In this document: one piece after another, positions 6,565 through 64,000 of the stretch
Position numbering within the stretch: position 1 is the stretch's first letter
How the letters are laid out: every line of letters starts with the position of its first letter
NCBI RefSeq assembly: GCF_036365525.1
Contig: NC_090401.1
Coordinates: 61,948,868-62,012,867 of the forward strand
From: Heterodontus francisci
Lineage: Eukaryota
DNA length: 64,000 nt
Direction of reading: 5' to 3'
Notes under the pieces: generated by a model
Database searches by the model: none
What the model was told of the DNA's origin: nothing
Seen by the model: the letters and a program-made list of their open reading frames with translations, nothing else
Program-made: the position numbers and the translations under genes

Positions 6565-8190
6565 CTTTGCCCTAGCCAAATTGAGGTCAATGGGAATTAG
6601 GGGGAAAACTCTCTACTGGTTAGAGTCATACCTAGCACAAAGGAAGATGGTTGTGTTTGTTGGTTTGTTGGAGGTCAATCATCTCAGTCCCAGGACATTG
6701 CTCCAGGAGTTCCTCAGGGTAGTGTCCTAGGCCCAACCATCTTCAGCCGCTTCATCAATGACCTTCCCTCCATCATAAGGTCAGAAGTGGGGATGTTCAC
6801 AGATGACTGTATGATGTTCAATACCATTTGCGACTCCTTAGATACTGAAAGCAGTCCTCGTCTATATGCAACAAGACCCGGACAACATGCAGGCTTGAGC
6901 TGATAAGTGGCAAGTAACATATGCACCACAAAAGTGCCAAGCAATGATGATCTAACGATCTCCCCTTGATGTTCAATGACATTTAACAGCATTACCATCA
7001 CTGACTCCCCAACCATCAACATCCTGTGGGGGGGGGGTTTACCATTGATCAGAAACTGAACTGGAGCAGCCACATAAATATTGTGGCTACAAGAGCAGGT
7101 TAGAGACTGGGAATTCTGCAGTGAGTAAGCCAGCTCCTGTCTCCCCAAAGCCTATTCACCAGCTACAAGGCACAAGTCAGGAGTGGAATACTTTCCACTT
7201 GCCTGGATGGGCGTGGCTCCAACAATACGCAGGAAGCTCGACACCATCCAGGACAAAGCAGCCCTCTTGATTGGCACCCCATCCACCACCTTAAACATTC
7301 ACACCCTCCACCACCGACACACAGTGGCAGCAATGTGTACCATATATAAAGTGCACTGCAGCAACTGACCACGCCTCCTTCAACAGCACTTTACAAACCC
7401 AAGAACTCTTCCTTCCAGAAAGACAAGGGCAGCAGACATGTGGGAACACCACCATCTGCAAGTTCCCCTCCAAGCCACACACCATCTTGACTAGGAACTA
7501 TATTGCCGTTCCTTCACTGTTGCTGGATCAAAATCCTGGTTAGGCCACAGCTGGAGTATTGCGTACAGTTCTGGTCACCACATTACAGGAAGGACATAAT
7601 TGCTCTAAAGTAAGTACAGAGGAAAGATTAGATCGGCTAGGGTTGTTTTCCTTAGAACAGAGGCGGCTGAGGCGTGACTTAATTGAGGTATACAAAATTA
7701 TGAGGGGCCTAGATAGACAGGAAGGACCTGTTTCCCCTAGTGGAGAGGTCAATTACCAGGGGGCACAGATTTAAGGTGATTGGTAGAAGGATCAGAGGGG
7801 ACATGAGGAAAGACTTTTTCACCTAGAGGGTGGTGGGTGTCTGGAATTCACTGCCCGAATCAGTGGTGGAAGCATAAACTCATTTAAAAGGTACCTGGAC
7901 ATGCACCTGAAGTGTTGTAACCTGCAAGGCTACGGACCAGGTGCTGGAAGGTGGGATTAGATTTACAGCTAGTTTTTTCAGCCGGCACGCACACGATGGG
8001 TTGAATGGCCTCCTTCTTTGCCCTAACTTTTCTATGGTTCTATGGTTCCTGGAACTTCCTTTCTAACAGCTCTGTGGGATACCCACACTAGATGGACTGC
8101 AGCGGATCAAGAAGGCAGCTCACCACCACCTTCTCAAGGACAATTAGGGATGGGAAACAAATGCTAGCCTTTCCAGTGAAAGAATAAAAA
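6565..8190 (+). mobile_element. CR1/L2-group LINE ('family B') 3' portion, interrupted by a HER/CR1 3' fragment at 7540-8046
   Basis: RT motifs GVPQGSVLGP / F(T)DD and the family B tail AAGGCAGCTCACCACCACCTTCTCAAGG. The insert is flanked by a TCCTGG duplication (7534-7539 / 8047-8052) and ends in (TTCTATGG)n. Confidence 0.8.
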
Positions 8191-14302: not shown

Positions 14303-16321
14303 TTTTGTTTTTATTCATTCATGGGATGTAGGCATCTCTGGCCAGGCCAGCATTTATTGCCCATCCCTAACTGCCCTTGAGAAGGTGGTGGTGAGCTGCC
14401 TTCTTGAACTGCTGCAGTCCATGTGGGGTAGGTACACCCACAGTGCTGTTAGGAAGGGAGTTCCAGGATTTTGACCCAGCGACAGTGAAGGAACGGCGAT
14501 ATAGTTCCAAGTCAATATGGTGTGAGACTTGGAGGGCAACTTGCAGGTGGTGGTGTTCCCATGCATTTGCTACCCTTGTCCTTCTAGTTGGTAGAGGTCG
14601 CGGGTTTGGAAGGAGCCTTGGTCTAAGGAGCCTTGGTGCATTGCTGCAGTGCATCTTGTAGATGGTACACACTGCTGCCACTGTGCGTCGGTGGTGGAGG
14701 GAGTGAATGTTTGTAGATGGGGTGCCAATCAAGCGGGCTGCTTTGTCCTGGATGGTGTCGAGCTTCTTGAGTGTTGTTGGAGCTGCACCCATCCAGGCAA
14801 GTAGAGAGTATTCCATCACACTCCTGACTTCTGCCTTGTAGATGGCGGACAGGCTTTGGGGAGTCAGGAGGTGAGTTACTCACCTCAGGATTCCTAGCCT
14901 CTGACCTGCTCGTAGTCACAGTATTTATATGGCTACAGATCAGTTTCTGGTCAATGGTAGCCCCTAGGATGTTGATAGTGGGGGATTCAGCGATGGTAAT
15001 GCCGTTGAATGTCAAGGGGAGATGGTTAGATTCTCTCTTTTTGGAGATTGTCATTGCCTGGCACTTGTGTGGCGCGAATGTTACTTGCCACTTATCAGCC
15101 CAAGCCTGGATATTGTCCAGGTCTTGCTGCATTTCTACACGGACTGCTTCAGTATCTGAGGAGTCACGAATGGTGCTGAACATTGTGCAATCATCAGCGA
15201 ACATCTCCACTTCTGACCTTACGATTGAAGGAAGGTCATTGATGAAGCAGCAGAAGATGGTTGGGCCGAGGACACGACCCTGAGGAACTCCTGCAGTGAT
15301 GTCCTGGAGCTCAGATGATTGACCTCCAACAACCGCAACCATCTTCCTTTGTGCTAGGTATGACTCCAGCCAGCGGTGTGTTTTCCCCCTGATTCCCATT
15401 GACCTCAGTTTTGCTAGGGCTCCTTGATGCCATACTCGGTCAGATGCTGCCTTGATGTCAAGGGCAGTCACTCTCACCTCACCTCACCTCTTGAGTTCAG
15501 CTCTTTTGTCCATGTTTGAACCAAGGCTGTCATGAGGTCAGGAGCTGAGTGGCCCTGGCGGAACCCAAACTGAGCGTCACTGAGCAGGTTATTGCTAAGC
15601 AAGTGCCGCTTGATGGCACTGTTGATGACACCTTCCATCACTTTACTGATGATTGAGAGTAGGCTGATGGGGTGGTAATTGGCTGGGTTGGACTTGTCCT
15701 GCTTTTTGTGTACGGGACATACCTGGGCAATTTTCCACATTGCAGGGTAGATGCCGGTGTTGTAGCTGTACTGGAACAGCTTGGCTAGGGGCGTGGCAAG
15801 TCCTGGAGCACAGGTCTTCAGTACTATTGCCGGAATATTGTCAGGGCTCATAGCTTTTGCAGTATCCAGTGCCTTCAGTTGTTTCTTGATATCATGCGGA
15901 GTTAATCGAATTGGCTGAAGTCTGGCATCTGTGATGCTGGGGACTTCAGGAGGAGGCTGAGATGGATCATCAACTCGGCACTTCTGACTGAAGATTGTTG
16001 CAAATGCTTCAGCCTTATCTTTCGCACTGATGTGCTGGGCTCCCCCATCATTGAGGATGGGGATATTTGTGGAGCCACCTCCTCCAGTTAGTTGTTTAAT
16101 TGTCCACCACCATTCACGGCTGGATGTGGCAGGATTGCAGAGCTTCGATCTGATCCGTTGGTTATGGGATCGCTTAGCTCTGTCTATCGCGTGCTGCTTA
16201 CGCAGATTGGCATGCAAGTAGTCCTGGGTTGTAGCTTCACCAGGTTGACACCTCATTTTCAGGTATGCCTGGTGCTGCTCCTGGCATGCCCTCCTGCACT
16301 CTTCATTGAACCAGGGTTGGT
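14303..16321 (-). mobile_element. CR1/L2-group LINE family B, 5'-truncated ORF2 (RT) with few frameshifts
   Basis: ORFs 15474-16256, 14623-15477 and 14367-14819 join into one RT (QFGFR, LDIKAA.DRV, GVPQG.VLGP, FADD). One frameshift coincides with a CTCAC micro-duplication at about 15473-15490. Confidence 0.88.
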
Positions 16322-28754: not shown

Positions 28755-30869
28755 TGTTACGACCAAGTGAGAGGGGTCTAGGGGTTCCCTCTTAGCCTTG
28801 CCTGGTTTAACAGTAACAGGGTTTAATTTTATAAAAACACCATGTTTTAGCTCCCCCTTTAGTGAATCCTTGTTCATTGCTTTCCAATTGTAAGGCAAAG
28901 AAATCAATTCAGTCAGCTTTTCTTAGATTTTAAACAAGAAAGGTAGAAGTTTATTAGTTAATTAGACAGCATGGCTTTGTCAGAGGGAGGTCATGCCTAA
29001 CAAATTTGATTGAATTTTTTGAGCATGTGACTAGGTGTGTAGATGAGCGTAGTGCAGTTGATGTAGTTTACATGGATTTCAGCAAAGCCTTTGACAGGGT
29101 CCCACATGGGAGACTTATCAAGAAAGCAAATGCACATGGGATACAAGGTAACTTGATAAGGTGGATTCAAAATTGTCTTAGCTGTAGGAGACAGAGAGTG
29201 ATGACAGACGGCTGTTTTAGTGACTGGAAGCCAGTGTCCAGTGGTGTACCACAGGGATCTGTGCTGGGTCCCCTATTGTTTGTCATTTATATAAACGACA
29301 TAGATGACTATGTGGGGGGTAGGATCAGTAAGTTTGCGGATGACACAAAGATTGGCCGAGTGGTTAACAGTGAGGTGGAGTGTCTTAGGTTACAGGAAGA
29401 TATAGACAGGATGGTCAAATGGACAGAAAAGTGGCAGTTGGAATTTAACGCTGAAAAGTGTGAGGTGATACACTTTGGAAGGAGTAATGTGACACGGATG
29501 TATTCAATGAACGGCTTGACACTGGGAAGTTCCGAGGAACAAAGGGACCTTGGCGTGTTTATCCATAGATCTCTGAAGGCAGAAGGGCAGGTTAATAGGG
29601 TGGTGAAAAAGGCATAAATTGCCTTTATCAATCGAGGCATAGATTACAAAAGCAGGGAGGTCATGTTGGAGTTGTACAGAACTTTGGTAAGGCCACAGCT
29701 GGAGTACTGTGTGCAATTCTGGTCGCCACATTATAGGAAGGATGTGATTGCACTGGAGGGGATGCAGAGGCGATTCACCAGGATGTTGCCTGGGATGGAA
29801 CATTTAAGCTATGAAGAGAGGTTGGATAGGCTTGGGTTGTTTTCGCTGGAGCAGAGAAGACTGAGGGGTGACCTGATTGAGGTGTACAAGATTTTGAGGG
29901 GCATGGACAGGGTGGGTAGGGAGCAACTGTTCCCCTTAGCTGAAGGGTCAGTTACGAGGGGTCACAAGTTTAAGGTGAGAGGCGGGAGGTTTAAGGGGGA
30001 TTTGAGGAAGAACATTTTTACCCAGAGGATGTTGATGGTCTGGAATGCCCTGCCTGGGAGGGTGGTAGAGGCAGGTTGCCTCACATCCTTTAAAAAGTAC
30101 CTGGATGAGCACTTGGCACGTCATAACATTCAAGGCTATGGGCCAAGTGCTGGCAAATGGGATTAGGTAGACAGGTCAGGTATTTTAATGTATCAGTGCA
30201 AACTCGATGGGCCGAAGGGCCTCTTCTGCACTGTATTATTCTGTGGTTCTGTGAATCTTAAACTCTAATCTGGTTACCAACTACGAATATGCGACGCGAC
30301 CACGCTGGCATGCATACGCGATAAACACACAGGCAGATAGAGACAGAAAAGGTAGAAGGAATAAAGATGAAAAATTTGAGGCAATATCTGGTTTCGCCTT
30401 GTTTCAACGTTGGAGTCTTTTCTCTCTGGAAGCTTGCATGTCTTCTGTGGGCCTGGTGGCTTGGGAGAAAGTGAGAGAGGCTTCCTTGTTCCAGCTTTAG
30501 TTTCAAACTGCCTTCTGAATTCAAACAATCCTGTGGCTAGTTCAAAAAACCTGGACCGGCCAGTTAGTCATGTGACCAGCTGGTATAACCAGTCCTGGGT
30601 CTGTGGATTGTATCTTCTTAGCAGGGCTTGGAATGCACTTCCTTACACCTTCCCAATATCTGGTGATCAAAATCCATTTGGATTAATTGGAGCAGGGAAT
30701 AGTCCTTTGTCTCTACAAGCAGCATCTCTTAGTATGCAAATGTCCTTCCAGCCCTGTGTCTGGTGATCTTCAAACAAATCATTTCTTCATTCCAGCAACA
30801 GTTTAAAATCAATGTTCATATGACAAAATTAATATGCCTCATTCTTGGCAGGTGGGGGTCTGCATGACA
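28755..30869 (-). mobile_element. Solo LTR (Gypsy-like) with nested CR1
   Basis: TG...CA termini (TGTTACG...CATGACA) with a 4-bp TSD GCAC at 28751-28754 and 30870-30873. AATAAA on the minus strand at about 28950. Confidence 0.7.
28960..30254 (+). mobile_element. HER/CR1 LINE 3' portion nested in solo LTR
   Basis: ORFs 29006-29617 and 29663-30166 (DFSKAFD, GVPQGSVLGP, KFADDTK, LEYCVQFWSPH) and a (TTCTGTGG) tail. Confidence 0.88.
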
Positions 30870-44684: not shown

Positions 44685-55929
<11,245 letters not shown>

Positions 55930-57391: not shown

Positions 57392-57446
57392 AGAGATAGG
57401 GAGGGGTACATAGGTCCCTGAAGGTGGCTGGATGGTTAAGGTGGTC

Positions 57447-57462
57447 AAGAAGGCATATGGGA
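57447..57462 (+). repeat. Left copy of 16-bp target-site duplication
   Basis: AAGAAGGCATATGGGA, identical at 63533-63548. Confidence 0.92.
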
Positions 57463-57514
57463 TCGCTTCTCGGCCTTTTGGTTAAGATCAAGTGTAGTAT
57501 CTGTTCTTATCAGT
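57462..57514 (+). ncRNA. RNU2: U2 snRNA 5' fragment (nt 1-53), fused to the retrotransposon 5' end; not a functional U2 gene
   Basis: ATCGCTTCTCGGCCTTTTGGTTAAGATCAAGTGTAGTATCTGTTCTTATCAGT matches vertebrate U2 nt 1-53 at 52/53 (C21T). It begins exactly at U2 +1 and includes stem I and the GTAGTA branch-point pairing sequence. There is no Sm site or 3' half. Confidence 0.95.
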
Positions 57515-57577
57515 GCTTATTTGATTGAGAAGAGACCATGATCATTGCCTTTTGATCCTGGGGAAGCTTTGAGTAAA

Positions 57578-59104
57578 ATGGCTATAACCAATTTTCGAGC
57601 TTCGGGCCAGGGAGTGCGCAACACCGTTCGGGTGGTCGTGAAGGACAAGGAAGGAGATGCACTGGTCGATCGCACCTTCTTCATCAAGAAAATTCTCTTC
57701 GATTGCTGCGGATTTCAAGCGACGGACGTCTTCTGCCTGCAGGATTTCCCCAGCAATGGATACTTCGACGTGACGTTCCGGAACGTGGCGGGATGCATCA
57801 AGTTCCTGAAGGCGTTCAAGGAGAAAGGGGACCGGGCTCCACTGTCGATCCTCACAGCGGAGCCGCTCTTCACGCTTCCGTCACAACGGGACCGGGTGGT
57901 GACGATTCACCTCTACAACCCCCATGTTCCGGTGGTGGATGTACTCACCTTTCTCGCCAGGTACGTCGAGGTGGCCGGCAGCAGCACTGATGTCAAGGAC
58001 CCCTTTGGGATCTGGACCAGCAAGCGGCAGGTCAAGGTGACCTTGAAGGTAGATCCCAGTGGAGCCATCATCCACCCTCCCTCCAGCTTCGCTATCGGGG
58101 GAAGTCGAGGCTTTTTGGTCTACGCTGGGCAGCCCAGAGTTTGCTGCACCTGTGGCAAATCTGGTCACATGGCAGCCAACTGCAGCACGGTTGTTTGCAA
58201 GAACTGCAAGGAGGAAGGCCATCAGACCAAGGACTGTAAGCAGACTAAGTGTTGCAACTTGTGCGGTGCGGCAGGCCATCTCTACAAGACCTGCCCCAAA
58301 CGTTGCCTCAGCTATGCTCAGGCGGCAAGGTCCAAGGAAAGGCCGGGAGAAGGTTCGACGAAGGCGTCCGCTGTTCGAAAGGAGACCAGCAACCTTCTTC
58401 GCAGTGAGGAACTTCAACCTGAAAAGGAAGGGGAGGCAGCTGAAACCAACGACCCAGCACCTACCCAGCGCCCGGAAACCCCTCCTACACAGACAGAATC
58501 AATGGAGGAGGAGGCAGCAGATGGACAAACAGGTCAGTGGCAAGTGGTCCAGAGGAAAACCACAAAGAAAAAACATCCCAAAGCCACCACCCAAACCAGT
58601 GGCAAGAGGAGGCTCTCTTCTGAATCAGACTGCAACAACTCCTCTTCACTGGACGGGGAAATGCTGGAACGACAGCCCCTTCAAAAGAGGCGGCAGAACT
58701 CCGAGATGGATGATAAAGCATCCCAGCCCCCGGGCACTGGAAGCTGTGATGGGCCCGGCGTGCCCCAACCCCAATTCCCCACACGTAACGACGTGGCCAA
58801 CGCATCTCAGCTCCGGGACACCGGGAGCAAAGACACGTCTGGCGCACCTGAGCTCCGGGAGACCGGGAGCTGTGATGTTTTCGAGGAGGAACAGATGGAA
58901 GCAGCTATGGACAACCCAATGCTCTCTGCCTACAAGACCCCCCCGATGTCACCCGAGCGGCACAAACCCTGCATGAAAAATCAGGAGGGGTTTCTGAGCC
59001 CAACCAACGTGAAACTGCTTGCGCATACGATGGGTATGCAGGAACATCCCGAAGGGGAAGGACTGGGACTAGCGAGGACAAATGGTATGGGAAGCAACAA
59101 CTAA
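57578..59104 (+). CDS. ORF1p: Gag-like nucleic-acid-binding protein (ZCCHC3-like N-terminal region, 3 CCHC knuckles, disordered tail), 508 aa from the first in-frame ATG
   Basis: Knuckles CTCGKSGHMAANC, CKNCKEEGHQTKDC and CNLCGAAGHLYKTC, followed by SYAQAA and WQVVQRK...KRR motifs typical of Tx1/L1-group ORF1. Confidence 0.9.
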   Translation: MAITNFRASGQGVRNTVRVVVKDKEGDALVDRTFFIKKILFDCCGFQATDVFCLQDFPSNGYFDVTFRNVAGCIKFLKAFKEKGDRAPLSILTAEPLFTLPSQRDRVVTIHLYNPHVPVVDVLTFLARYVEVAGSSTDVKDPFGIWTSKRQVKVTLKVDPSGAIIHPPSSFAIGGSRGFLVYAGQPRVCCTCGKSGHMAANCSTVVCKNCKEEGHQTKDCKQTKCCNLCGAAGHLYKTCPKRCLSYAQAARSKERPGEGSTKASAVRKETSNLLRSEELQPEKEGEAAETNDPAPTQRPETPPTQTESMEEEAADGQTGQWQVVQRKTTKKKHPKATTQTSGKRRLSSESDCNNSSSLDGEMLERQPLQKRRQNSEMDDKASQPPGTGSCDGPGVPQPQFPTRNDVANASQLRDTGSKDTSGAPELRETGSCDVFEEEQMEAAMDNPMLSAYKTPPMSPERHKPCMKNQEGFLSPTNVKLLAHTMGMQEHPEGEGLGLARTNGMGSNN

Positions 59105-59117
59105 TTTTTGGTAAAAA

Positions 59118-62100
59118 ATGGGTGTAAGAATTGCTTCCATTAATGTGCGTAGCATTAAATCTACTACGCGATGTGTTTCAACCTTGGATTACCTTGCCAA
59201 GGTCAAAGCTGACCTACTGTTTCTGCAGGAGTGTGGAATACCACACCTCAGCACCTACAGGCAGTGGTCGCGATGGTGGTCCCACGGGCCATCGATCTGG
59301 TCGGGGGGTAATGACTGCCGTTCCTCCGGCCTGGGTATTCTGCTGCGGGGAGGTAACTTCACCATCTCCGAAGTTAAGGAGGTGGTGGGCGGCCGCCTCC
59401 TCGTAGCAGACGTGATGTACAACAACGCTCCGCTCCGGTTGATCAACGTGTACGCCCCGGTACAACGCAGCGAGCGGCTGACCGTCTTCCAGCAGCTCCC
59501 ACTGCTGCTGGCGACGTCCAGGCCGGTCATCCTAGGCGGTGACTTCAACTGCATCATCGATGCGGCTGGACGATCCGGCAGTGACGACAGCAAACTGGAC
59601 GCTACGTCCAGATTCCTAGTAGAAACAGTTAAGGATGCCAAACTGCACGACGTCTTCAGCAAACCTGCAGACGGAGCGCAGCGCAGATACACATGGTCAA
59701 GATCGGACGGGTCTGCCCGTTCCAGGATTGACTTCCTGTTTGTGTCCCGTGCTGTCACGGTCGGATCCACCGACGTCAAGCCGGTGTTCTTCTCCGACCA
59801 CTGCCTCTTACTGGCCGACTGTCACTTACAGGACGACCAGCGGGTTGGCAGAGGGACGTGGAAGCTCAATGCGACACTGCTGACCCCAGAGAACGTTGAG
59901 GAACTCAAAAGGGATTACAATGGTTGGAGGACCGTGAAACCCCTCTTTGAGTCTCCAGTTCACTGGTGGGAAGCGATAAAGGAGAACATCAAGAGGTTCT
60001 TCATCCACAAAGGTGTTCAGAAGGCGAGAGAGAGACAGAGGGAACTGTCCCGACTCCAGAAAATTATGCAAAATCTACTCCGGTTGCAGTCAATGGGGGT
60101 CGAGGTCAAGGAGGACCTCCAAGAGGTGAAGAGCCAGCAGGCCTCGCTCTTTGCCAAGGAGGCCTCCAAGATCATCTTCCGGTCCAGAGTCCGCTCCATC
60201 GAGCAGGATGAGACGTGCTCGCGTTACCTCTTCCAAAAGGTACACAGAGAGAGCTCTATTATCAGCAGCCTGAAGGAAGAAGATGGCTCGGTAACGTCTT
60301 CGCAGTCCGACATACTAAGGATCAGCAAATCCTTTTATGCTGGGCTGTATGACGCGAAGCCCACAGACAGCAGAGCCTCCCAGTCCTTCCTGTCATCTAT
60401 CACAGAGGTCCTAGATGACAGCAGGAGGGAGAGACTGGACAAGCCGCTAATTCTGGACGAGCTGACAAAGGCCGTCGAGTCTTTCGAGACGAGTAAAACT
60501 CCCGGGAGCGACGGCTTACCGGTCGAGTTGTACTCGTCCCTGTGGGACTGGGTCGGCCCGGACCTGCTGGAAGTATACGAGAGTATGCTCCTGGCCGGCA
60601 GCATGTCAGAATCCATGAGAAGAGGCATCATCACCCTCATTTACAAGCAGAAGGGGGAGAGGGCAGAAATCAGAAATTGGCGGCCCATCTCACTGCTTAA
60701 TGTTGATTACAAGATTCTGTCCAAAGTCATAGCCAGTCGAGTCAAGTCTGCTCTGGAGTTGGTGATTCACCCCGATCAGACCTGTACTGTACCCGGCAGG
60801 AAGATCTCTGATAGTCTCGCGCTACTCAGGGATACGATCGCCTACGTACGGGACAGGAGGGTGGACACCTGCCTCATCAGTCTGGACCAGGAGAAGGCTT
60901 TTGACAGGATATCGCACACCTACATGATGGACGTGCTTTCCAAAATGGGGTTTGGGGAGGAAATCTGCAATTGGATCCAACTGCTCTACACAAACATCAG
61001 TAGCGCAGTGTCAATCAACGGGTGGGAATCTGAAAGTTTCCCGATCAAATCTGGAGTCAGACAGGGCTGTCCTCTGTCCCCGGTCTTGTTTGTTTGCTGT
61101 ATTGAACCCTTTGCTGAGTCTATTAGGAAGGATGCGAGCATAAGAGGGGTGACAATCCCAGGCAGCGGAGGCACTCAGGTCAAAACCTCCCTGTACATGG
61201 ATGACGTCGCCGTCTTCTGCTCGGATCCGCTGTCCGTGCGCAGACTGATGAGCATCTGCGACCAGTTCGAACTGGCCTCGGGAGCCAAAGTTAACCACGG
61301 CAAGAGCGAGGCCATGTTCTTTGGGAACTGGGCTGACCGATCCTTTGTCCCCTTCACCGTCAGGTCAGATTACCTGAAGGTGCTGGGGATATGGTTCGGA
61401 AGTGCCGGGGCGTGCACCAAAACATGGGAGGAGCGAGTAGCCAAGGTACGACAAAAGTTGGGCATGTGGGGGCAGCGATCTCTCTCCATTGTGGGTAAGA
61501 ACCTGGTCATCAGGTGCGAGGCGCTCACGTTGTTGCTCTACGTGGCGCAGGTCTGGCCCATACCCCACTCCTGCGCCGTGGCAGTCACCCGAGCCATTTT
61601 CCGCTTCGTCTGGGGATCTAAAATGGACCGGGTCCGGAGGGACACGATGTTCAAATCTCTGGACATGGGCGGGAAAAATGTACCCAACGTGGCCCTCATC
61701 CTGATGACCACCTTCGTGTGCGGCTGCATCAAGCTATGTGTAGATCCCCAGTACGCAAACTCCAAGTGTCACTACGTGCTGAGGTTCTATCTGTCCCCGG
61801 TGTTGCGAAGGATGGGCCTGGTCACATTGCCGCGGAACGCACCATGCAGTTGGGCGGCGCCGTACCACCTATCCTTCGTGGAGCAGTTTCTGCGGAAAAA
61901 CACCTTTGACCACCGGTCCATCAGGCAGTGGTCTGCACGGAATGTCCTCAAGGCCCTACGGGAAAAGGAAACGGTGGATCCTGTCGGATGGTTCCCCGAG
62001 CAGACCGTCAAAGTCATTTGGCGGAATGCCTCATCACCAGAACTTTCAAACAAGCACCAAGACGTAGCTTGGCTGGTGGTGAGAAGGGCCCTCCCCGTCA

Positions 62101-62525
62101 GATCCTTCATGCACACCCGAAGTCTCGCCCCCTCCGCACAGTGCCCCCGCGTTGGCTGTGGTGGGGTAGAGACGGTCGCCCACCTCCTCCTGGAATGTGC
62201 CTTTGCAAAGCAGGTGTGGAAAGAGATGCAGTGGTTTTTCTCAAGGTTCATCCCAAGCAGCTCTGTAACACAGGAGTCTGTGCTCTACGGGCTGTTCCCA
62301 GGGACGCACACCGAGACAAACATCAACTGCTGCTGGAGGACTATCAATTCGGTGAAAGACGCCCTTTGGTCTGCCCGAAACTTGCTGGTCTTCCAGCGCA
62401 AAGAGTTGTCCACCAGCGAATGTTGCAGACTGGCACATTCCAAGGTCCAGGACTACGTGCTGAGGGACGCACTAAAGCTTGGGGCAGCCGCAGCAAAGGC
62501 TCAATGGGGAAAGACCACAGTGTAA
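59118..62525 (+). CDS. ORF2p: APE endonuclease + reverse transcriptase + C-terminal zinc finger, 1135 aa, uninterrupted
   Basis: EN: SINVRS, FLQE, NVYAP, GGDFN, SRIDF, SDH. RT: PGSDG, WRPISLLNVDYKIL, LDQEKAFD, GVRQGCPLSP, YMDD. Zinc finger: CPRVGCGGVETVAHLLLEC. Confidence 0.96.
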   Translation: MGVRIASINVRSIKSTTRCVSTLDYLAKVKADLLFLQECGIPHLSTYRQWSRWWSHGPSIWSGGNDCRSSGLGILLRGGNFTISEVKEVVGGRLLVADVMYNNAPLRLINVYAPVQRSERLTVFQQLPLLLATSRPVILGGDFNCIIDAAGRSGSDDSKLDATSRFLVETVKDAKLHDVFSKPADGAQRRYTWSRSDGSARSRIDFLFVSRAVTVGSTDVKPVFFSDHCLLLADCHLQDDQRVGRGTWKLNATLLTPENVEELKRDYNGWRTVKPLFESPVHWWEAIKENIKRFFIHKGVQKARERQRELSRLQKIMQNLLRLQSMGVEVKEDLQEVKSQQASLFAKEASKIIFRSRVRSIEQDETCSRYLFQKVHRESSIISSLKEEDGSVTSSQSDILRISKSFYAGLYDAKPTDSRASQSFLSSITEVLDDSRRERLDKPLILDELTKAVESFETSKTPGSDGLPVELYSSLWDWVGPDLLEVYESMLLAGSMSESMRRGIITLIYKQKGERAEIRNWRPISLLNVDYKILSKVIASRVKSALELVIHPDQTCTVPGRKISDSLALLRDTIAYVRDRRVDTCLISLDQEKAFDRISHTYMMDVLSKMGFGEEICNWIQLLYTNISSAVSINGWESESFPIKSGVRQGCPLSPVLFVCCIEPFAESIRKDASIRGVTIPGSGGTQVKTSLYMDDVAVFCSDPLSVRRLMSICDQFELASGAKVNHGKSEAMFFGNWADRSFVPFTVRSDYLKVLGIWFGSAGACTKTWEERVAKVRQKLGMWGQRSLSIVGKNLVIRCEALTLLLYVAQVWPIPHSCAVAVTRAIFRFVWGSKMDRVRRDTMFKSLDMGGKNVPNVALILMTTFVCGCIKLCVDPQYANSKCHYVLRFYLSPVLRRMGLVTLPRNAPCSWAAPYHLSFVEQFLRKNTFDHRSIRQWSARNVLKALREKETVDPVGWFPEQTVKVIWRNASSPELSNKHQDVAWLVVRRALPVRSFMHTRSLAPSAQCPRVGCGGVETVAHLLLECAFAKQVWKEMQWFFSRFIPSSSVTQESVLYGLFPGTHTETNINCCWRTINSVKDALWSARNLLVFQRKELSTSECCRLAHSKVQDYVLRDALKLGAAAAKAQWGKTTV

Positions 62526-62793
62526 GGTTCCCCCACCAAGCTGGACTGAGGGGCTGGAACCATGGGAAACCCCTCGAACTGTATCGTTAATATTCTCAAT
62601 TGCTGTAAATGTAAAACTGTAATTGACATGACAATTGTGAAACGGAAGGGTTGGGAAGAAACTCATGACATTATTGAAAGAAACTGATCTCTTTTGCAAT
62701 GTTTGTATTTTTTCGTGCTGTTTGGAAACTGTTTGTCAATGTAATTTTTACAGATTTTTATGAATAAAGTATATTTTGGAAATATAAAAAAAA

Positions 62794-62803
62794 TCTGTTC
62801 TTA
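62794..62803 (+). repeat. U2 target-site remnant (U2 nt 39-48) between the two element copies
   Basis: TCTGTTCTTA directly after poly(A), identical to 57500-57509. Confidence 0.85.
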
Positions 62804-63534
62804 GCTTGGCTGGTGGTGAGAAGGGCCCTCCCCGTCAGATCCTTCATGCACACCCAAAGTCTCGCCCCCTCCGCACAGTGCCCCCGCGTTGGCTGTGGTG
62901 GGGAAGAGACGGTCGCCCACCTCCTCCTGGAATGTGCCTTTGCAAAGCAGGTGTGGAAAGAGATGCAGTGGTTTTTGTCAAGGTTCATCCCAAGCAGCTC
63001 TGTAACACAGGAGTCTGTGCTCTACGGGCTGTTCCCAGGGACGCACACCGAGACAAACATCAACTGCTGCTGGAGGGCTATCAATTCGGTGAAAGACGCC
63101 CTTTGGTCTGCCCGAAACTTGCTGGTCTTCCAGCGCAAAGAGTTGTCCACCGCCGAATGTTGCAGACTGGCACATTCCAAGGTCCAGGACTACGTGCTGA
63201 GGGACGCACTAAAGCTTGGGGCAGCCGCAGCAAAGGCTCAATGGGGAAAGACCACAGTGTAAGGTTCCCCCACCAAGCTGGACTGAGGGGCTGGAACCAT
63301 GGGAAGCCCCTCGAACTGTATCGTTAATATTCTCAATTGCTGTAAATGTAAAACTGTAATTGACATGACAATTGTGAAATGGAAGGGTTGGGAAGAAACT
63401 CATGACAGTATTGAAGGAAACTGATCTCCCTTGCAATGTTTGTATTTTTTGGTGCTGTTTGGAAACTGTTTGGCAATGTAAATTTTACAGATTTTTATGA
63501 ATAAAGTATATTTTGGAAATTAAAAAAAAAAAAA
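62802..63534 (+). mobile_element. Second, 5'-truncated Keno-like copy in tandem
   Basis: Direct repeat of 62065-62793 with about 15 substitutions and 1 indel counted by eye. It has its own AATAAA (63500-63505) and poly(A) 63522-63534, and a 2-nt TA microhomology with the U2 remnant at its 5' junction. Confidence 0.92.
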
Positions 63535-63548
63535 GAAGGCATATGGGA
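63533..63548 (+). repeat. Right copy of 16-bp target-site duplication
   Basis: AAGAAGGCATATGGGA after the final poly(A). Confidence 0.92.
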
Positions 63549-64000
63549 CAATTGCTTTTATTAGCTGAGGCATAGGATATAAGAGCTGGAATGTTATGCT
63601 GAAACTGTATAAATCACTGGTTAGGCCACAGCTGGAGTACAGCGCACAGTTCTGGCCACCACACTATAGGAAAGATGTAATTGCACTGGAGGGTACTGAG
63701 GAGATTTGCAAGGATGTTGCCTGGACTGGACAATTTGTTTTGAGGAAAGATTGATAGACTAGGGTTGTTTTTCTTTGGGACAGAGGATGCTGAGGGGCGA
63801 CCTAATTGAAGTATATGAAGTTATGAGGGGTCTAGATACAATGGATAGGAACACCCTATTCCCCTTGGTTGAGGGGTCCATAACCAGGGGGCATTGATTT
63901 AGGGTAAAAGGTAGGGTGTGAGGGGATTCAAGGAGAAATCTTTTCCTGGAACTCACTGCCTGAAAGTGTGATAGGGGTAGAAGCCTTCATAACATTTAAA

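Follow-up and report, generated by a model that had tools for sequence, protein, structure and literature searches.

The 64,000-nt stretch of Heterodontus francisci DNA analysed here (the window) contains, far from any U2 gene, a 6,071-bp unit made of a U2 snRNA piece and two head-to-tail LINE copies. The element is likely Keno, probably a shark member of this family, stacked and displaced. As to its origin, we see close to an even chance that the tandem arose in a U2 gene and was moved to the present locus as one read-through RNA. A second history, two successive insertions in situ, would leave the identical sequence, and neither the target-site duplication nor the divergence of the two copies separates the two. 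The unit and its flanks are arranged as follows:

57406..57446, + strand: left flank, an old host repeat, presumably CR1-like; empty site colinear with three window paralogues (72-77 %)
57447..57461, + strand: 15-bp target-site duplication, left copy; bottom-strand nick context 5'-TTCTT/GA-3', L1-like
57462..57514, + strand: U2 snRNA head, nt 1-53, the first base being exactly nt 1 (Rfam RF00004, 59.7 bits, E 2.8e-9)
57515..57577, + strand: 5' UTR of copy 1, 63 nt, assigned from the sequence
57578..59104, + strand: ORF1, 508 aa, with two ZCCHC3-type RNA-binding domains (PF23057, PF23058) and CCHC knuckles (PF00098)
59118..62525, + strand: ORF2, 1135 aa, with AP-type endonuclease (PF03372), reverse transcriptase (RT, PF00078) and C-terminal zinc finger (PF13966)
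62526..62793, + strand: 3' UTR of copy 1, with AATAAA at 62763-62768 and an 8-A tail ending at 62793
62794..62803, + strand: spacer equal to U2 nt 39-48, the final 2 nt shared with copy 2
62802..63532, + strand: copy 2, 5'-truncated, comprising the last 461 nt of ORF2 and the 3' UTR, with AATAAA at 63500 and a tail of 11-13 A
63533..63547, + strand: 15-bp target-site duplication, right copy, a perfect match to the left copy
63548..64000, + strand: the old host repeat resumes, with colinear paralogues

The U2 head was the sole Rfam match in the 64-kb window, and its nt 39-53 lie on the 3' side of the position nicked by Keno. The head departs from the Rfam consensus at nt 21 in stem I (window position 57482), either as a species variant or by decay. 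Both reading frames of copy 1 are open, as the earlier note had stated, with E-values of 4e-15 for PF03372 and 7e-39 for PF00078 in ORF2. A five-codon upstream ORF (57538-57555) lies inside the 5' UTR ahead of ORF1. Elsewhere in the window, ORFs of 167-260 aa were present in old dispersed repeats (14623-15399, 15474-16256 (minus strand); 29072-30166; 52876-53379). The outer duplication is indeed perfect, and the 15-mer is present in the window at its two sites only. Joining of the flanks at one duplication copy rebuilt an empty site to which three further copies of the repeat in the window align colinearly (72-77 % identity), thus the outer event hit this repeat, which we take to be CR1-like, and not a U2 gene. 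The outer nick, 5'-TTCTT/GA-3', is close to the L1 consensus 5'-TTTT/A given in the accessible text of PMC4476161 and unlike the U2 site.

Keno belongs to the Tx1 clade; it is a LINE with an AP endonuclease and inserts specifically into U2 snRNA genes (Kojima and Fujiwara 2004, as cited in the available parts of PMC4640811, PMC4494074 and PMC6136364). The element shares with Keno an AP-like endonuclease and an RT in ORF2, a 3' end joined to the published target word at U2 nt 39, and the 5' part of U2 upstream; it differs in that the outer ends lie in a host repeat instead of a U2 gene and that two copies are stacked. The assignment is based on domains and U2 junctions; none of 76 homologues carries Keno or Tx1 in its visible name. 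The best full-length homologues, an unnamed protein and newt proteins, are 45-46 % identical, while short pieces within gene models of Heterodontus and Scyliorhinus reach 69-86 % identity in their best segments. Three shark gene models (P0039, P0046, P0049; cadherin-type domains in one, DMBT1-like, ABCC5-like) contain ORF1 and ORF2 pieces of the family, which are probably decayed copies annotated as exons. Utopia, defined by a restriction-like endonuclease and a single ORF, was ruled out as identity of the element, which has two ORFs and an N-terminal AP endonuclease.

The stacked arrangement that the earlier note had described was confirmed: the AATAAA and A-tail of copy 1 are followed by U2 bases and by a second copy at 2.1 % divergence. 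The 10-nt word between the copies occurs twice in the window, the second occurrence being in the U2 head. A match of the 10 bases after the first tail to the U2 word has a chance probability of 1.3e-6 (8 bases: 1.7e-5). The published insertion point of Keno and Utopia is U2 nt 39, the 3' flanks of both elements being identical (PMC4640811), and the 3' target word of Keno has been published as well (PMC6136364). Since the spacer starts exactly at nt 39, the 3' end of copy 1 was made by targeted insertion and not by slippage. A plain duplication in one event would not produce a spacer at this nucleotide. Also rejected was slippage on a single RNA by way of the U2 head of that RNA, since two jumps would be needed, the second exactly at nt 39. 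The 5' end of copy 2 is joined to U2 nt 46-48, a truncation with a 2-nt microhomology. An unequal crossover via the 10-nt word, for which the homology is short, is possible and was counted with the formation of the tandem in a U2 gene. Restacking at the same U2 site, on which the earlier note had relied, is a real process and has been published for Utopia (PMC4640811). In Nasonia vitripennis, 20 of 94 Utopia 3' junctions adjoin another Utopia, and one row of S1 Fig in the accessible part of that paper presents a U2 remnant of ~11 nt followed by non-U2 sequence. The tandems of Utopia resemble the present one in the U2 site and in the short U2 remnant between stacked copies, whereas their endonuclease is restriction-like, their ORF single and their described location within U2 genes.

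Copy 2 (62802-63520) aligns to 62065-62783 with 15 substitutions and no indels in 719 nt, corresponding to a divergence of 2.1 % (95 % CI 1.2-3.4 %). Six differences fall in the 461 coding bases (five codons) and nine in the UTR. All five changed codons are non-synonymous, with a P of 0.19 under neutrality and of 0.004 at a dN/dS of 0.2. The coding differences look like decay in both copies. Comparison with homologues suggests that copy 1 carries the derived state at ORF2 residues 1017 and 1041, and copy 2 that at residue 1001: the R of copy 1 at residue 1001 is present in 16 of 29 homologue rows and the Q of copy 2 in none of the 29; residue 1041 is L or M, as in copy 2, in all five homologues of at least 41 % identity; and residue 1017 is E or D, as in copy 2, in the three ungapped homologues of at least 41 % identity. 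Two active sublineages, for which the earlier note had proposed a test, are an unlikely origin of coding differences that are non-synonymous in five of five codons. Of the ten strong/weak differences, eight pair an A/T in copy 1 with a G/C in copy 2 (two-sided p 0.11). Together, polarity and the strong/weak split indicate weakly that copy 2 has no sign of greater age than copy 1; it is also not evidently older because the inner tail, with 8 A, is shorter than the outer one with 11-13 A.

That copy 2 represents an independent earlier insertion, as claimed before, therefore held in one part: a slippage duplication is contradicted by the spacer at nt 39. The dating by the perfect outer duplication fell, as 15 bp stay perfect with a probability of 0.73 at 2.1 % divergence and hence date nothing. 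A decay simulation, in which all 15 differences were assumed to postdate the event (1.05 % per copy, 400 simulations), left both ORFs stop-free in 16.5 % of the simulations, and the probability of no frameshift was 0.02-0.13 for assumed indel rates of 10 % and 5 %. Because the ORFs rarely survive if all differences came after the event, part of the divergence should predate it. Copy 1 alters 1 of 93 otherwise invariant ORF2 columns, and the CpG o/e is 0.66-0.72 compared to 0.27 in the remaining window. The open ORFs favour a young copy 1, a view also compatible with the two-step history in situ.

For the transfer as one RNA, a Keno-like LINE would first have inserted twice, in separate target-primed events, at nt 39 of the same U2 gene elsewhere, so that the two copies were stacked with U2 nt 39-48 between them. 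Transcription from the U2 start would have passed the full-length copy and its AATAAA and stopped at the AATAAA or A-tract of copy 2, and the 6.07-kb RNA would have been fully reverse-transcribed into a nick in the old CR1-like repeat, creating the 15-bp duplication. We infer the source array, the single event, the read-through and the promoter from an anatomy in which one duplication brackets the whole unit over an empty site colinear with three paralogues, and in which the unit begins at U2 nt 1, as an RNA of the U2 promoter would. This history is further supported by U2 nt 39-53 before copy 1, which would be a simple 15-bp duplication in an intact U2 gene, while a head before copy 2 would offer nt 39-48 only, and by the 63-nt 5' UTR, which presumably leaves scant space for a promoter of its own. 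Family fragments bearing the ORF1 start in unrelated shark gene models (P0039, P0049) likewise speak for it; long copies of the family seem to exist outside U2 clusters. The stacking published for Utopia and the lack of signs of greater age in copy 2 point in the same direction. Regarding the order in the source array, insertion of copy 2 into the regenerated 3' half-site, the sequence of events proposed in the earlier note, is slightly favoured over an entry of copy 1 upstream of an older truncated copy. The former requires that the endonuclease tolerates an A-tail upstream of the nick, the latter that the RNA supplies nt 49-53.

Against the transfer as one RNA stands that the same sequence is obtained without any read-through by two steps in situ, a history which the earlier note had overlooked. 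A short U2-headed copy, U2 nt 1-48 plus 729 nt (about 780 bp), would have entered the CR1-like repeat, with the 15-bp duplication as the result, its source being either a template switch onto U2 snRNA or a U2 gene that carried a truncated Keno. The head would have retained the Keno target, and a full-length Keno would later have homed into it, on target at nt 39. This is a possible origin, which we hold with some reserve. It needs no leaky AATAAA and no 3' transduction and limits the off-target copying to 0.78 kb. The L1-like outer nick would be unusual if an RNA were mobilised by the site-specific protein that it encodes, and fits an ORF-less RNA moved in trans. A 6-kb RNA would also exceed human U1/U2 transcription units, which reach only about 1 kb according to the accessible text of PMC3874203, and the survival of the ORFs, improbable if all 15 differences arose after a joint event, is accounted for by two steps: open frames, one altered column of 93 and a CpG o/e of 0.66-0.72 against 0.27 can stand next to a 2.1 % divergence. 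The short copy would moreover belong to a described class, an snRNA head on a 5'-truncated sense LINE with duplication and L1-type nick (PMC4476161 and PMC13174262, in their available parts). On the other side, the target in the head lacks U2 nt 49-53, which are present at the 5' junction of copy 1; these bases would have to be supplied by the arriving RNA or represent the first bases of the family. Decay in copy 2 should equal or exceed that in copy 1, an expectation with which the 8:2 strong/weak split and the homologue polarity disagree, if weakly, and the full-length copy must have struck a dispersed 48-nt head.

Two further explanations carry less weight. In a template switch within one event at this locus, 719 nt would have been copied off one Keno RNA before a jump to another RNA, one headed by U2 and extended past its own tail into U2 nt 39-48 by read-through, and no genomic tandem would have existed at any time. 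The 2-nt microhomology at the copy 2 junction agrees with such a jump, switching is general among LINEs in the available text of PMC4476161, and R2 uses read-through target tails according to that of PMC6530143. Nevertheless, it is quite improbable: two RNAs, a jump near the target word and then a full 5.3-kb copy are all required, the first AATAAA must still be read through, and for Utopia a genomic remnant of similar length exists. That two alleles or paralogues were fused at the tail during assembly is hardly credible, even though the region is repetitive and the junctions are those of the assembled sequence; the spacer is an exact biological word from nt 39 (chance 1.3e-6), both outer ends meet in one perfect duplication over a colinear empty site, and the 15 differences are scattered over 719 nt without indels.

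Read-through is implied by the transfer as one RNA and by the template switch only. The readings of the earlier note as a leaky AATAAA and a 3' transduction are thus possible ones. CPSF is reportedly not recruited at human snRNA genes (PMC3874203, available text), and any read-through could stem from an snRNA promoter without CPSF rather than from a leaky AATAAA. The growth of arrays in U2 genes, also proposed before, is possible; the evidence here is a single locus, itself outside a U2 gene.

Each component of the arrangement has a precedent. In L1 3' transductions the element, a first tail, extra sequence and a second tail are enclosed in one duplication. The present unit likewise holds extra sequence between two tails within one duplication, with the difference that a further copy of the element, which has an AATAAA itself, makes up this extra sequence. 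Chimeric snRNA/LINE retrocopies, among them internally truncated heads for U3 and U5 (PMC4476161 and PMC13174262, accessible parts), and the crocodilian SINEU with its U2-derived head (PMC4494074, accessible part) share with the unit a sense snRNA 5' part as head, the duplication and an L1-like nick; without copy 1 the unit is exactly such an snRNA/LINE chimera, and the head would have been joined directly to the truncated LINE only if copy 1 arrived later. Unlike these, the head here ends at the target site of the element itself and is followed by a full-length coding copy. Our literature search yielded no description of a U2-headed Keno tandem at a site other than U2, although Kojima and Fujiwara 2004 or the supplements of PMC4494074 may cover duplications or tandems, no Keno paper for sharks, and no paper on Keno transcription or co-transcription.

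Public sequences were surveyed for relatives. Among metagenomes, 470 of 595 candidates were confirmed, and the best 80 of these 470 (25-42 % identity) were kept. Rfam on all 80 and a local scan revealed no Keno-type U2 junction among these best 80 of 470, a point against the transfer as one RNA; intact U2 was present at one locus and U1 matches at three. Viral contigs contributed none out of 258 candidates. A distant two-ORF relative in L002 (492-6110) sits in the start of a U1 gene with a 15-bp duplication (492 and 6096), directly downstream of an intact U2 gene (72-263); U1-targeting is listed for Dada only (PMC4640811). The relative in L035 (5010-5150) ends at the same U1 position as that of L002, with the remaining U1 after it. 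In L006 (6046-6205), the relative has AATAAA and an A-tail and abuts a U1 gene at another position (about nt 21); an intact U1 repeat unit (7563-7726) follows 1.5 kb downstream. L029 has an intact U1 gene (47-210) upstream of the relative and a U2-like word at 652 before ORF1. Other relatives lie downstream of a type I hammerhead ribozyme (L014, 10-54) or of a 5S rRNA gene on the opposite strand (L020, 365-483). Parts of the stretch occur in sequencing runs, in 20 of the 24 rows listed, from 11 studies. For six of the sequencing-run rows, which are of mixed kind, the shared fraction of words is 0.55-0.56; with complete coverage this would correspond to ~1.5 % private divergence, a lead only.

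The locus records the 5' end of an RNA at U2 nt 1 and, in addition, two target-site junctions. If the tandem was moved as one RNA, the unit is the fossil trace of a U2-promoter transcript of 6 kb, which ran past a canonical AATAAA; if it was built in two steps, dispersed U2 heads serve as fresh targets. As a single locus that both histories fit equally well, it offers a lead but no demonstration. Under a further, rather unlikely reading, Keno would use the external promoter of U2, read past its AATAAA, and seed new targets through off-target U2-headed RNAs. A polymerase loaded at the U2 promoter without CPSF would ignore the AATAAA of the element by design, multi-kilobase RNAs would run through stacked copies, and U2-headed RNAs inserted off target would provide new dispersed U2 heads as further Keno targets. 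The persistence of U2-specific LINEs on a low-copy target has been raised as a puzzle (PMC4640811). If this reading is true, a site-specific LINE would make its own targets and thereby escape the confines of a low-copy gene family.
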